From a virus (Duplodnaviria > Heunggongvirae > Uroviricota > Caudoviricetes), in IMG/VR virus record IMGVR_UViG_2600254997_000022: DNA of 20,766 nt; one strand, given 5' to 3'. Below the pieces are notes generated by a model. The model searched no databases. It saw only the letters and a list, made by a program, of their open reading frames with translations, and had not been told where the DNA came from. A program made the position numbers and the translations under genes. Within the stretch, counting starts at the first letter, position 1; each line of letters opens with the position of its first letter. Below, piece after piece: positions 1 through 20,766 of the stretch.

Positions 1-69
1 TCAAAAGGTTGATGATGTTCGTTCATTGCCCACTCCATGTGATATCGATTGCAAGGAAAGTAAGTCTAT

Positions 70-89
70 AACTGTGTTTATATACAGTT
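70..89. promoter_or_regulatory. LexA/SOS-box-like palindromic operator AACTGTGTTTATATACAGTT
   Basis: Fits CTGT-N8-ACAG; 16/20 identical to the recalled consensus TACTGTATATATATACAGTA. Lies ~45 bp upstream of a minus-strand ATG (26..24) preceded by GGAG; that ORF runs off the window start. Confidence 0.45.
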
Positions 90-182
90 GTGAGTATCTC
101 ACGTTCTCACTGCGCTGGGCAAAAAAACATCGCAAAATCTGGAGCAGGCACGCAAAACAGAATTGAAGTTGCGGGGAAGAAA

Positions 183-211
183 AATGCCGCTCTGTTTGAG
201 TGGGCGGCATT
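183..211 (-). terminator. putative intrinsic terminator
   Basis: 8-bp stem AATGCCGC/GCGGCATT with a 13-nt loop, followed on the minus strand by TTTTCTT. Confidence 0.4.
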
Positions 212-620
212 TGTGAAGGCTGAAAAGTAAGAATTGGCGTTACGAGTTGAATCTGTTTGTAGAGTGTTGGCTTCAATGCCTCATTTTGGCTGGTTTCTTT
301 ATAATGCTGTTTTTGATTATGTACACCCTTATGTACACGGTTTTTTTGGGTGCTTTGGTCAGAAGCCATTGTCTACATCCCTCACGATCGAGGTGTGTAA
401 TCATGTTCAGGCTTGTTGTCCTGCGCGCGCGTATTGCTCGTGAAATTGCTGTACCCAATAGTGATGTCCGAAAAAACCTCCGTTCTCACATGAAACAGCC
501 ATGTGCAACTGGTAACTGAATAGACTGGTAGACCGTTCGTTCAGTAAATACCTGATATTTTCGCCAACGAGAAATTGCGTTGGCTGGCAGAGTGCAAATT
601 TGCACGATGACCTAACCCAT

Positions 621-647
621 TGATTTTTCGAAAACCTGCAATGCAGG
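621..647 (-). terminator. putative intrinsic terminator downstream of the PerC-like gene
   Basis: Hairpin CCTGCA-A-TGCAGG (635-647) followed on the minus strand by TTTTCGAAAAA, about 75 bp after the stop of ORF 721..1008. A perfect 14-bp palindrome GTGCAAATTTGCAC sits nearby at 592-605. Confidence 0.35.
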
Positions 648-720
648 AAGCCGGATAACACCATTTTTATAGCTCCGATCCCTTCAAAGTGAGGGGTAAT
701 TTGCCAAAACAGAGAGAGCA

Positions 721-1008
721 TTACTGTCTCTGGCAATCTTTATCGCGATAACGCCTGAAGTACCCTCTCGCTTCCTCATCCATACCAAGAGCCGAATGAG
801 TTCGCTTAACTGCCTGTCTTAAATCTCCGAATCTGTCTGTAGTTGCTGGTGGGCGTGCCGCCCTACGGATACATTCAGAGCGTCTGTTTGCTGCATGTTC
901 ACGTTCTTTATCGCCATCTGCCAGCATCATGACTTCTGCCCATCGTGCGGCAGCTCTCCGGTATAGCCCTTTTGACTCCAGCTCTTCAGCTTTCCTGTCC
1001 CTTATCAT
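721..1008 (-). CDS. PerC-family transcriptional activator homolog (95 aa)
   Basis: ATG preceded by GAGAGG. The segment ELESKGLYRRAAARWAEVM matches my recollection of the PerC/Pch family signature (LE..G.YRRAA..W). Small basic protein. Confidence 0.55.
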   Translation of the reverse strand: MIRDRKAEELESKGLYRRAAARWAEVMMLADGDKEREHAANRRSECIRRAARPPATTDRFGDLRQAVKRTHSALGMDEEARGYFRRYRDKDCQRQ

Positions 1009-18234: not shown

Positions 18235-18437
18235 CAGGCCACCTTCCCGCGGCGTTCTGCCAGCCAGTTGTGAATCTCAACCGCATCAAACGCAGTTATT
18301 TTTTCTCCCAGCTTTACCGGACGTGGTAGTGAACCGTTTCTTACTTTACGGTCGATGGTGGATACACTAACGCCCAGCAATTCAGCCAGGCGAAAGCGTC
18401 TGATATAGCCTTTTGTAGGGATAGTGTCGATGTTCAT
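18234..18437 (-). CDS. alpA: AlpA-family (CP4-57-type) HTH regulator, 67 aa
   Basis: RFRLAELLGVSVSTIDRKVRNGSLPRPVKLGEKITAFDAVEIHNWL matches the AlpA pattern; sits in the usual position inward of a P4-type integrase. Confidence 0.8.
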   Translation of the reverse strand: MNIDTIPTKGYIRRFRLAELLGVSVSTIDRKVRNGSLPRPVKLGEKITAFDAVEIHNWLAERRGKVA

Positions 18438-18500
18438 GATTCCCGTAACCTCTTAGCGATAGTTGTTGCTTCGTTACGAGAAATCTAGCTGTATAGATAT

Positions 18501-18532
18501 ACAATGAAAAGGTACTGTAATTTTGCAGTACC
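18501..18532 (-). terminator. putative intrinsic terminator after the 316-aa cargo ORF
   Basis: Inverted repeat GGTACTG-N8-CAGTACC followed on the minus strand by TTTTCATTG, 12 bp after the stop at 18544. Confidence 0.4.
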
Positions 18533-18543
18533 TCTATAGTAAG

Positions 18544-19494
18544 TTAACTATCCACTTTGCCATTTGCCGCAGATCGTAGATGTTTAAGAATTACATCTTC
18601 ATTAGTTATCATAAGTGGTGGAACTTCGTCTAAATGACGAACAAGACAGTCACGCCACTTCTCAGGGCTTATTTCTTTCCTTTCTCCCCTGCATTCATTT
18701 GGATACTTACTAAGTATATAAATTGCAGATTTTAATAGTTTCTCCCTATTGACTGCGTACCGTTCGGCACGTTTATTAACTTTTAGCGTATTTATATCAT
18801 TGGATAACTTGTTTGCGGATGGTTTGTGCATGGGTCTGTCATAAATATATTTTCCTCCATTTATAAGAAGATTGTATTCATAGTCAGTTATATACATTTT
18901 GTTTCGGCTTATTTCATACCAGCCGTCAATATAAAAAGCTCCGATTTCATAATTATTCGATTTGCTAAACTCGTCACATCTCGGAGGCATCAGTTCGCAT
19001 ACAGAGATCTCCCAATCATCCCATTCTGATAGCTCCCGCTCATCGTTATCTATGAACGCAGGCGGAATTGCTAATAGACCGCTCCATCTTTCGATATCTC
19101 TTTCATCCTTCCCAACATTATATCGCTCTATAACTGAGAAATGTTCTGATTTGTATGAAAACCTCATAAAATACATATAGTTATCGCTATTTTTATAATC
19201 AGGTGATGATAAGCCATATGATTCGAGATTATCTGCCTTATTGCTCAGATCAAGGAGATAATTCTCATGTGCTGCTTTTGTATCTATATGAAAAATACTA
19301 TCTGTTTCAACTTTAAGTAATTCTGGCTCGGCATCTTCATTTTTTGGGTAATGGTAAAACAATTCAATAGGTGGAATTTTTATACATATTTCTAAAACCC
19401 CAATTGCTGCATAGTGTATTAAATCGGATACTTCACATCCGGCCAGTTTGGCTGCTTTATCCAAAGAATAATATTTATGCGCAGGTAATTTCAT
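18544..19494 (-). CDS. AT-rich hypothetical protein with N-terminal HTH-like segment, 316 aa (cargo gene next to the integrase)
   Basis: Starts 19 bp after the integrase stop, with GAGAGGA 10 nt upstream. N-terminus YSLDKAAKLAGCEVSDLIHYAAIG is HTH-like; the remaining ~270 aa have no recognisable motif. Appears clearly lower in GC than its neighbours (estimated by eye, about 38%). Confidence 0.7.
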   Translation of the reverse strand: MKLPAHKYYSLDKAAKLAGCEVSDLIHYAAIGVLEICIKIPPIELFYHYPKNEDAEPELLKVETDSIFHIDTKAAHENYLLDLSNKADNLESYGLSSPDYKNSDNYMYFMRFSYKSEHFSVIERYNVGKDERDIERWSGLLAIPPAFIDNDERELSEWDDWEISVCELMPPRCDEFSKSNNYEIGAFYIDGWYEISRNKMYITDYEYNLLINGGKYIYDRPMHKPSANKLSNDINTLKVNKRAERYAVNREKLLKSAIYILSKYPNECRGERKEISPEKWRDCLVRHLDEVPPLMITNEDVILKHLRSAANGKVDS

Positions 19495-19512
19495 TATGAA
19501 TATTTCCTCTCA

Positions 19513-20766
19513 TCATGCTCTGATTGGCGTTACGTTGTAGTCTTTTCCGCTTTCCAGTGCCACCAGCAGATCTGCCCACTGTGCCAGTGCTGCTTTACGC
19601 TCATCAAAATACTGATGACGGTTATAAATCCCCTCTACGCCCTTAATGCGATGATTGAGGCATCGTTCCGCCACGACAGGATCAACACCCAATGCTGCTA
19701 AATGAGTACGTGCGGTGCGTCGGAAGTCGTGAATCGTGAAATTAGGCACATCCGGCATTTCGGCGCGAACCTTAGCCAGTGCTACGGGTAAAGTGCTTTC
19801 CTGAATATGTGGGATCATTCTGTTTTGCATCTTCCTGGCCGGAAGCACCCATGCGCTATTACATGAAAAGGTGTGTAGCTCTCTCAACCATTCAACGGCT
19901 GGGGAAGGTAGAGGTATATCAATAGGGTCTCCGTTTTTGCTGCGTTCTTCCGGCAAATGCCATACCGCACCATCTAAATCAAACTCTTCCCATCGTGCGG
20001 CGCATAACTCCATCTTACGAACGCATAGTGCCAGCAATAGTTTAAATGTCAGTTCGTTTTGGCGGCTGAATCCTTTTGCGGTGCGCATAGCCTCGAATAG
20101 CCTGATAAGCTCATCGCGAGTTAGCCAACGGTCGCGGGAAACCTCTTTACCACCAGCATCAGATACTTCAAACGCTGAACAAGGGTTTATCTCCAGAGCG
20201 TGGCGTTTTATCCCATAGTCAAAGATACGGCGTGTCCAGCGTAATACATCTGTTGCTATCGTTGGTGCTCCTCGGTCAACGATACCTTTCAACATGTCGT
20301 CAATGTGGCGTGGCTTAACGTCCTCTACCTTCATATGCCCAATGCAGGGGTTAATATCCTTATCAATTCTCCGGCGAAGGATATCGGGATGTTTCCATCT
20401 CGGAAGTATCTGGCGCTCGAAGTATTCGGAGGCCAGATCTGAAACACGCATGGCGTTTTTCTCAGCCTCCATTTTTGCCAGTGCTTCAGCTTTTCGTTCC
20501 TGTTTCTCTGCTGCTACGTCATAGCCAAGAGCAACTCTGGCTGACAGCTCTTTCGCTGTTTCTCTGGCTTTTGATAGTGACAGTTCGGAGTAAGAGCCTA
20601 TAACCATAGCCCGCTGCTTTCCTGCGAGCTTATAGCGGAATCGCCAGAACGGGACTGTGTAGTTTTTGGGGTAGCAAATATAAAGGCCGTTGCCGTCTGC
20701 CTTGCCATCAAATCTGTCTCCCGCCTTTATCCATGCGCGGATCTGCATATCTGTGAGTTTTGGCAT
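19513..20766 (-). CDS. int: tyrosine site-specific integrase, P4 family, 417 aa
   Basis: C-terminal catalytic region with HDFRRTARTH and NRHQY (catalytic Tyr). N-terminus MPKLTDMQIRAW...DGNGLY resembles P4-type integrase N-termini. The start codon is at the window edge. Confidence 0.9.
   Translation of the reverse strand: MPKLTDMQIRAWIKAGDRFDGKADGNGLYICYPKNYTVPFWRFRYKLAGKQRAMVIGSYSELSLSKARETAKELSARVALGYDVAAEKQERKAEALAKMEAEKNAMRVSDLASEYFERQILPRWKHPDILRRRIDKDINPCIGHMKVEDVKPRHIDDMLKGIVDRGAPTIATDVLRWTRRIFDYGIKRHALEINPCSAFEVSDAGGKEVSRDRWLTRDELIRLFEAMRTAKGFSRQNELTFKLLLALCVRKMELCAARWEEFDLDGAVWHLPEERSKNGDPIDIPLPSPAVEWLRELHTFSCNSAWVLPARKMQNRMIPHIQESTLPVALAKVRAEMPDVPNFTIHDFRRTARTHLAALGVDPVVAERCLNHRIKGVEGIYNRHQYFDERKAALAQWADLLVALESGKDYNVTPIRA

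Follow-up and report, generated by a model that had tools for sequence, protein, structure and literature searches.

A genomic island between dinD and yicC with PICI-like backbone genes and a P22-like ejection-protein operon

The stretch of DNA considered here (IMG/VR record IMGVR_UViG_2600254997_000022; 20,766 nucleotides, hereafter the window) corresponds almost exactly to one genomic island of about 20.7 kb, lying between the core genes dinD and yicC. We propose, with a probability of roughly 0.6, that this island belongs, as a partly inactivated copy, to a family of satellites of the phage-inducible chromosomal island (PICI) type, which would exploit P22-like podophages as helpers and bring along an ejectosome of their own. 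The original prediction, made from the letters of the window alone, had described a satellite-like element rather than an autonomous phage, and had hesitated between an undescribed satellite variant and a decaying composite prophage. The satellite-like character is supported by a published PICI attachment (att) site and by an integrase 89.5% identical to that of the PICI EcCIRM13514, and the undescribed variant is now favoured, since the ejection operon proves to be a conserved and selected feature of a multi-genus island family. Beyond that prediction, the analysis brought to light a mimic of the phage packaging (pac) site, a LexA box and a C4/isrK RNA module.

Comparison with the empty site of E. 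coli K-12, a check of the kind that the original prediction had suggested, places the left junction at 247-255, where the attL core TTGAATCTG is found, and the right junction (attR) outside it, some 190 bp further to the right than the last position of the window, within the 3' end of yicC, whose last codons are rebuilt by the island. Positions 1-246 are core chromosome outside the island, namely the first part of dinD (1-26, minus strand), followed by dinD-yicC intergenic DNA. Two observations had been named that would speak for an ordinary prophage or for an undelimited element, namely head, terminase and tail genes directly to the left and a missing att duplication. Neither was encountered: dinD occupies the left flank and yicC the right one, neither being a phage morphogenesis gene, and a short direct repeat stands at both ends of the island. 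The proposed search for an att site in a tRNA or tmRNA gene thus succeeded as to the repeat only; a tRNA/tmRNA site is rejected, as the window contains no such gene and the real site is the 3' end of yicC. The attL core agrees with the published PICI att core TTGAATCTGCTC (the reverse complement of GAGCAGATTCAA), yicC-dinD being given as the att site of EcCIRM13514 (core GAGCAGATTCAA, 11.9 kb; Fillol-Salom et al. 2018 supplement, PMC6092414). The island combines a PICI-type integrase with a specific att site, which according to the PICI criteria prophages never use (Fillol-Salom et al. 2018), and the fetched sequence of EcCIRM13514 also encodes an AlpA with 68% identity to that of the island and a PerC gene. 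The same element is present between dinD and yicC of E. coli 214-4 with 98.6% identity, its length being 19.5 kb there because the 1311-bp IS629-like insertion of the window is missing. In strain PSS-13, two dinD copies (L014, 8341-10340) flank a sister island devoid of ejection genes, one of the copies being island-borne, and islands at yicC-dinD may thereby acquire or duplicate this adjacent SOS gene.

The ejection-protein operon that had been recognized from the sequence is indeed present, on the minus strand. It opens with a conserved 53-residue protein (10263..10424), followed by a DUF2824 protein at the position of gene 14 in P22-like phages (gp14, 9785..10246), a gp7-like ejection protein (P22_gp7, PF25688, 2e-72; 9114..9791), a gp20-like ejection protein (Inj_translocase, 7795..9114) and a split SLT-gp16, whose proximal part bears the lytic transglycosylase (SLT) domain (7230..7804) and whose distal three quarters form a pseudogene here (3763..5918), while the intact protein counts 906 residues in strain 214-4. 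The last gene after gp16 encodes a 232-residue lipoprotein with an LAGC lipobox (2914..3612, minus strand), distantly related to DUF4136, which is co-transcribed after gp16, goes with this gp16 allele, reaches 88% identity in Salmonella and may act in exclusion. In true P22-like prophages, the corresponding position is taken by small lipoproteins that are unrelated to it and encoded on the other strand (L005, 13733-14212; L007, 8236-8688). As for the 53-residue protein, its gene is retained also in sister islands without ejection genes, and its sequence weakly suggests a possible ribbon-helix-helix regulator. The claim that packaging and structural genes are missing holds as well: terminase, portal, scaffold, coat, gp4, gp10, gp26 and tailspike were not found with Pfam, PHROGs and tblastn, which together with NCBIfam define the gene content reported here, and the window contains no tail genes and no lysis genes (holin, endolysin).

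This operon is not peculiar to the window. A search seeded with gp20 recovered the same gene order in Salmonella, Serratia, Leclercia and Buttiauxella, as well as in metagenome and IMG/VR contigs. More precisely, the shared order runs from a 143-residue protein, an AntA or Bro protein, DUF4222, ash and small open reading frames (ORFs) to the primase and the origin, and continues with the 53-residue protein, gp14, gp7, gp20 and SLT-gp16 before ending in cargo. The architecture is kept over at least 6 genera, the islands having unrelated integrases (28-29% identity) that fall into at least 3 types, as well as 3 primase types, and no capsid, terminase or tail gene was found in any of them. The family is clearly separated from phages: gp20 homologues below about 51% identity lie within complete P22-like prophages, and in IMG/VR the relation between gp7 identity and phage markers is bimodal, with at least 84% gp7 identity and no phage marker for the 9 island loci, against 52-69% identity and 4-8 markers for the 70 true P22-like loci (three truncated contigs with 1-2 markers being the exceptions). 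The island gp7 proteins thus form a clade of their own, apart from all sampled phage gp7 (at most 69% identity, 70 P22-like loci). Among 5426 complete E. coli genomes, 237 (4.4%) have the junction of primase, origin, gp14 and gp7, and this particular gp20 allele is found in 71 complete E. coli genomes. A scan of species-representative genomes by gp20 alignment yielded 2 further islands only, in Leclercia and Buttiauxella, and the element is sporadic within species. Most island copies have intact ORFs, and comparison of copies from different genera gives ratios of non-synonymous to synonymous substitution rates (dN/dS) of 0.07-0.12 for gp14, gp7, gp20 and gp16. These ratios indicate that the ejection genes are under purifying selection. 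The operon is a family trait rather than debris.

Within this conserved frame, gp20 and gp16 are exchanged as a pair. In strain D8, the backbone is 99% identical to that of the island, but gp20 (from about residue 54) and gp16 have been jointly replaced by an unrelated pair, the gp16 of which is 67% identical to that of phage N7. Besides, one island retains gp20 and gp16 alone of the ejection genes, and the 13-kb sister island of PSS-13, inserted at the same site, has none of them and keeps the 53-residue gene. In P22, foreign sets of ejection proteins assemble into virions and function, gp16 and gp20 need to be a matched pair while gp7 is interchangeable, and gp16/gp20 are the targets of SieA superinfection exclusion and determine the sensitivity to it (PMC10883804). 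The swapping of the gp20/gp16 pair within a conserved module fits these published P22 genetics. As a separate observation, an isolated DUF2824 fragment of about 290 bp, 96-97% identical to the island gp14 gene, occurs in hundreds of O157:H7 and related genomes (for instance NZ_CP038423, 1521566-1521852), beside IS1203 in some of them, and looks like the remnant of a recent exchange with the islands or their helpers.

The copy in the window has nevertheless suffered. Its gp16 is doubly broken, by a +1 frameshift (extra A near 4517) and by an IS629-like element of the IS3 family (5919..7229, plus strand, 1311 bp) flanked by a 3-bp GTT target duplication. The insertion itself is probably immobile because its orfB is split (6296-6880 and 6738-7187, in different frames). 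It has kept an intact ALIL frameshift pseudoknot (116 bits). Slight degeneration is seen in the pac mimic and in the isrK-like RNA, whereas the remainder of the island is intact, with proteins 98-100% identical to those of other copies. Since gp16 is destroyed and the pac mimic has two substitutions, this element is probably no longer fully functional. The idea of a decaying element is therefore right for this copy alone and does not extend to the family.

The control of the ejection operon was approached by phylogenetic footprinting, the 300 nt upstream of the 53-residue gene being aligned for 11 islands. This alignment delineates a putative promoter region conserved across genera (10440..10510, minus strand), with a perfect -10 hexamer TATAAT (10458-10463, minus strand), an inverted repeat (10464-10510) and, 2 bp downstream of TATAAT, a predicted LexA box CTGT-N8-ACAG (10440-10455, minus strand), preceded by a conserved intrinsic terminator between the replication and ejection operons (10517..10561, minus strand). 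The LexA box is kept in 10 of the 11 island promoters, and the window contains two copies only of CTGT-N8-ACAG, the other being dinD's own box (72-87). DNA damage, to which P22-like prophages respond by induction, would thus probably derepress the operon as well. A sigma-70 promoter scan of 10200-11050 returned no consensus promoter, and the intergenic region between origin and operon showed no useful similarity to phage late promoters or qut sites; read-through of the operon by a Q antiterminator was dropped for that latter reason.

The pac mimic provides the link with P22-like phages. When the window freed of its insertion sequence was compared with phages by megablast, 16534-16640 matched terS (gene 3) of P22 and many P22-like phages with 86-95% identity. 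This fragment (plus strand) is antisense to the island genes and non-coding, and starts with the pac mimic GAATGTTTTTGTGGAGTCACTACACGAG (16534-16561), the match beginning inside the 22-bp site annotated, on experimental grounds, in a P22 record as the terminase recognition (pac) site. The mimic of the window has 7 mismatches to the P22 22-mer and matches other terS variants; accordingly, a search of the window for the exact P22 pac 21-mer, allowing up to 3 mismatches, gave no match. Other islands do not have the 100-bp fragment and carry only its core GAAGRTTTWTSTGRNGTCACTACGCGAG, this 28-nt motif being present in 1-6 copies in every ejection-operon island that reaches past gp16. The copies, whose flanks are unrelated, lie between genes, either downstream of gp16 or ahead of the RNA module, and an array holds up to 6 copies in 530 bp. 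In the window, a degenerate motif with 5 mismatches to the 28-nt consensus (2711..2738, minus strand) sits downstream of the ejection operon, where other islands have such arrays. The 28-nt motif is absent from EcCIRM13514 and from the empty site, 5 shuffles of the 500 kb analysed did not produce it, and an exact-pattern scan of IMG/VR found it in two settings only, namely the terS of real P22-like prophages and the islands. As only the 28-nt core is kept, in several copies and in unrelated intergenic DNA, selection appears to act on the site itself. The mimic would recruit the small terminase of the helper.

Further hints at a helper come from co-occurrence. Some E. coli P22-like prophages have in their terS exactly the motif variant of the E. 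coli islands, and one IMG genome has both an island and a P22-like prophage contig that share an identical 29-mer. About 280 places in E. coli match the terS fragment only, around 59 of them in genomes that also have this P22-like terminase type, which corresponds to an enrichment for this prophage type with an odds ratio of about 6.6, as a rough estimate from counts that is uncorrected for clonality and takes the fragment-only places to be islands. Direct inspection of strain ETEC1721 verified that its island at yicC is accompanied by a P22-like prophage that is complete; their ejection proteins are 23% (gp14), 54% (gp7) and 34% (gp20) identical, and their gp16 proteins have no detectable similarity.

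Taken together, these data suggest the following scenario. DNA damage would induce a P22-like helper prophage residing in the cell, and cleavage of LexA would switch on the ejection operon of the island. The helper would activate AlpA, upon which the island would excise and replicate from its own origin. The small terminase of the helper would then bind the pac mimic, thereby explaining the missing packaging genes, and fill full-size heads with about two island copies, twice 19.5 kb approaching one headful of 40-43 kb. The matched gp20/gp16 pair of the island, with gp7 and gp14, would be built into those procapsids, so that the satellite DNA would be delivered by an ejectosome unlike that of the helper. 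Cells under SieA-type exclusion, for instance helper lysogens, could be entered in this way, and mismatched mixtures of gp20 and gp16 would be expected to harm helper virions. Delivery by a distinct ejectosome appears as the most likely benefit of the ejection proteins, their purpose (exclusion bypass, sabotage of the helper or establishment of the DNA) being the least secure step of the scenario. A wider claim, according to which about 4% of complete E. coli genomes harbour a new satellite family using pac-mimic arrays together with its own SOS-controlled and fast-evolving gp20/gp16 pair to inject past SieA-type exclusion, is put forward tentatively, at somewhat less than even odds.

Several points weigh against this scenario. 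The literature yielded no experimental induction, packaging or transfer of any family member, and LexA binding is a prediction from consensus and conservation only. About four fifths of the island-bearing E. coli genomes are devoid of this P22-like prophage type, and the pac site of the ETEC1721 prophage is of the P22 type, not of the island variant. The mimic of the window departs from the P22 22-mer at 7 positions, as mentioned, and shows 2 differences to the consensus of the E. coli islands. Moreover, sister islands without ejection genes also have the pac motif (L014); hence the packaging trick does not require the ejection operon, the benefit of which is a pure inference. The proteins of island and helper would also share one procapsid pool, so that satellite particles, too, would be exposed to poisoning by mixed sets. 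Finally, the motif arrays could be terminase decoys rather than packaging origins.

This last point leads to the view of the island as an interference or defence element, in which the ejection proteins and pac arrays mainly sabotage P22-like phages, transfer being secondary or absent: mismatched gp20/gp16, once incorporated into phage procapsids, would render the virions non-infectious, the small terminase would be titrated away by the pac repeats and the lipoprotein would add exclusion. The dense arrays of up to 6 copies in 530 bp indeed resemble decoys, P22 provided with one foreign partner of gp16/gp20 makes non-functional virions (PMC10883804), helper interference is a hallmark of PICIs (Fillol-Salom et al. 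2018), relatives have Abi-family genes in their cargo and the lipoprotein is linked to the gp16 allele. However, one poison subunit would suffice for sabotage, whereas a complete, co-adapted gp14-gp7-gp20-gp16 set is strongly selected and the whole gp20/gp16 pair is exchanged as a functional cassette; integrase, AlpA, primase and origin are the machinery of a mobilisable satellite, and PADLOC detects no known defence gene in this copy. Interference as the main function is thus judged unlikely, bearing in mind that it is not mutually exclusive with self-transfer. Still less probable is a role in establishment, where the satellite gp16/gp20 would protect or circularise incoming redundant DNA in cells without phage recombination functions. 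It can call upon the P22 gp16 mutation tdx-1, linked to the fate of transduced DNA (PMC10883804), upon an ejection protein of S. aureus phage 80alpha reported to bind and protect genome ends (PMC7290940), and upon the lack of any Erf-type recombinase among the satellite proteins in Pfam and PHROGs scans; that gp20/gp16 alleles are rapidly replaced while the backbone stays identical resembles an arms race against exclusion systems more than housekeeping.

The composite considered by the original prediction would have arisen when a PICI captured a fragment of a P22-like prophage, comprising the ejection genes and a piece of terS, by illegitimate recombination, the whole being non-functional baggage. 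The window taken alone could be read in this way, given its gp16 broken by IS629 and frameshift, its ash-annotated region out of frame, the terS fragment of E. coli islands that amounts to a 100-bp antisense non-coding scrap, and a second origin-like iteron cluster suggestive of past rearrangement. Baggage would hardly show an architecture conserved over at least 6 genera with 3 integrase and 3 primase types, a dN/dS of about 0.1, mostly intact ORFs and a junction present in 4.4% of complete E. coli genomes, nor would it leave elsewhere only the 28-nt pac core, in several copies surrounded by unrelated DNA, or a gp7 clade distinct from all sampled phage gp7. At the family level, this reading is largely refuted, and we regard it as very improbable overall.

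Returning to the satellite proposal, the island can be situated among known systems. It is closest to the Gram-negative PICIs EcCIRM13514 and EcCICFT073 (PMC6092414), with which it shares AlpA, a unidirectional operon from alpA to pri-rep, PerC, an origin that follows the 3' end of the primase gene closely and has its AT-rich region between two iteron sets, the absence of terminase and capsid genes and a borrowed helper packaging site, in addition to the att site and near-identical integrase of EcCIRM13514. It differs from them by its size (19.5 kb versus 7.5-14.7 kb, PICIs being defined at about 12-15 kb), by a pac instead of a cos mimic (EcCICFT073 carrying the cos site of its helper; PMC6092414), by its probable P22-like podophage helper in place of lambda or phi80, by a LexA box on a late-type operon and, as regards EcCIRM13514, by its C4/isrK RNA module. 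Above all, gp7, gp20 and SLT-gp16 are virion proteins, and the gp14/gp7/gp20/gp16 module is excluded by the PICI definition, no published PICI having ejection genes. With P4-like satellites, the island has in common a P4-type integrase, an AlpA/Vis-type regulator, a large primase-helicase of the alpha type, an antirepressor or putative derepressor function, a putative C4/CI-type RNA immunity and a variable cargo slot beside int. It lacks the psu-delta-sid operon that defines them (PMC10085698), no ORF having a psu, delta or sid homologue by Pfam or PHROGs, as well as a P2 cos site, and its helper type is another one. Islands with integrase, AlpA and primase alone make up the excluded 'Type C PICI' class, thousands of which are unclassified (SatelliteFinder, PMC10085698). 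Capsid-forming PICIs (cf-PICIs) are likewise PICI-type satellites with some virion genes of their own, but these are capsid, portal, head-tail and terminase genes, only the tails being taken from the helper. None of these genes was found in the island with Pfam, PHROGs and tblastn, and its family encodes internal ejection proteins alone.

The likeness to P22-like phages is confined to the 14-7-20-16 module, with the same Pfam families, order and mosaic evolution, and to the 100-bp terS scrap; SLT-gp16 fusions occur also in true P22-like prophages and phages, whereas the module of the island stands without other morphogenesis genes, and the flanks are core genes. Operon I of the Staphylococcus aureus pathogenicity islands (SaPIs), which are staphylococcal PICIs, is reportedly a LexA-repressed packaging and interference operon that fires together with SOS induction of the helper. 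Both are satellite operons acting on helper virion assembly from a LexA-type promoter (predicted here), with unrelated contents, that is, terS, capsid-size and interference genes in the SaPIs and ejection proteins in the island. In sum, the island is neither a P4-like satellite nor a cf-PICI nor a prophage remnant, and resembles a PICI as to site, integrase, regulator and origin.

The searchable literature yielded no description of a satellite or PICI that carries ejection proteins or has P22-like helpers. Known satellites alter helper capsid size, packaging specificity or expression, or build their own capsids, and to our knowledge none has ejection proteins of its own. If the proposal is correct, the island would be the first known example of a satellite that tailors entry instead of capsid size or packaging specificity, making DNA entry a new hijacking step in satellite biology. 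The family would provide a natural system for gp20/gp16 variation evading SieA-type exclusion, pac mimicry would represent a terminase-free packaging route on headful phages, and a function could be assigned to part of the thousands of 'Type C PICI' int/alpA/primase islands. In addition, because the islands carry PerC regulators and Abi-type cargo, their mobility would matter for the way in which E. coli and Salmonella regulate virulence and defend themselves against phages.

The remaining backbone also agrees with the original prediction, the integrase, two alpA-like genes, antirepressor, primase and small coupled ORFs all being found again with Pfam, PHROGs and NCBIfam. On the minus strand, the P4-type tyrosine integrase (19513..20766; Arm-DNA-bind_3, Phage_int_M and Phage_integrase domains) is 89.5-99% identical to those of other yicC-dinD islands. 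It is followed by a 316-residue protein of low GC content (0.36) without family match (18544..19494), which occupies a variable slot between int and alpA. This slot holds a 281-residue protein in 214-4, DUF6387 in L010 and a 200-residue protein in L008, and looks like the defence/cargo hotspot of P4 and PICIs; PADLOC found no known defence gene in the cargo of this copy, Abi-family genes being seen among the cargo of relatives. Next come AlpA (PF05930, 18234..18437), predicted to be the master regulator as in PICIs, the conserved 143-residue core protein (17803..18234), the AntA antirepressor (16957..17790), the DUF4222 gene (16782..16964) and an ORF annotated 'ash family protein', which is out of frame in this copy (15719..16788). 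Six small translationally coupled ORFs of 123, 113, 200, 73, 87 and 64 residues (13743..15726), kept in the island family, include no terS-like or other packaging protein according to Pfam, PHROGs and NCBIfam, and precede the primase-helicase (Zn-ribbon, Toprim, DUF927; 11000..13759). At the left end lie a second gene of the AlpA family encoding a helix-turn-helix protein (1658..1843, plus strand) and a PerC-family transcriptional activator (PF06069, 8e-33; 721..1008, minus strand), an accessory gene typical of E. coli PICIs.

The iterons reported earlier are real, the window containing 11 copies of GTTGGTTCA against 0.14 expected, but they do not flank the primase. One cluster, directly 3' of the primase, has an AT-rich spacer with 3 direct iterons on one side and 2 inverted ones on the other (10873..10974) and is the predicted replication origin, this layout of iteron sets on either side of an AT-rich region after pri-rep being that of PICIs. 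The other, likewise built around an AT-rich spacer but from 3 copies in each orientation (1045..1165), lies 9.8 kb away, upstream of perC, and is 77% similar to 10869-10974 and inverted relative to the origin. It could be a second origin, an element of primase-dependent perC control or the recombination scar of two islands. In other islands, perC adjoins their single origin.

Within the 'ash family protein' ORF, Rfam identifies a C4 antisense RNA (16178-16265, 81 bits) and an isrK-like RNA (16328-16407, 57 bits), which together span 16178..16407 on the minus strand. The pair is kept in all related islands scanned with Rfam (L003, 986-1213; L008, 4369-4596; L010, 5544-5771; L012, 3340-3567; L014, 18015-18200). 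As in P1/P7 immI, with its c4, and at isrK of Salmonella Gifsy-1, the RNAs adjoin an antirepressor and an Icd/Ash-like ORF, but they stand here in a satellite replication operon and not in a phage immunity region. An RNA immunity acting on the replication operon, similar to that of P1 immI or P4 CI, is plausible. The Pfam Phage_ASH match covers the same DNA as the two Rfam matches, so that the long ORF possibly does not encode a protein at all; the two additional bases that put ash out of frame fall in the isrK-like RNA, and the Phage_ASH family or annotation may partly rest on a translated conserved RNA locus. RefSeq names the ORF over these RNAs either 'ash family protein' or 'Icd-like protein'.

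Two minor observations concern RNAs and their partners in relatives. The Rfam 'int-alpA RNA' lies between int and alpA in tRNA-integrated relatives (L008, 2001-2070; L010, 2569-2639; L012, 97-165) and stays below the gathering threshold in the window. Besides, some relatives encode an SSB and a ProQ/FinO-family protein in the stretch that separates the origin from the ejection operon or from perC (L003, 6531-8450; L024, 9546-10479), and such a ProQ-type RNA chaperone may be functionally linked to the nearby C4/isrK module.

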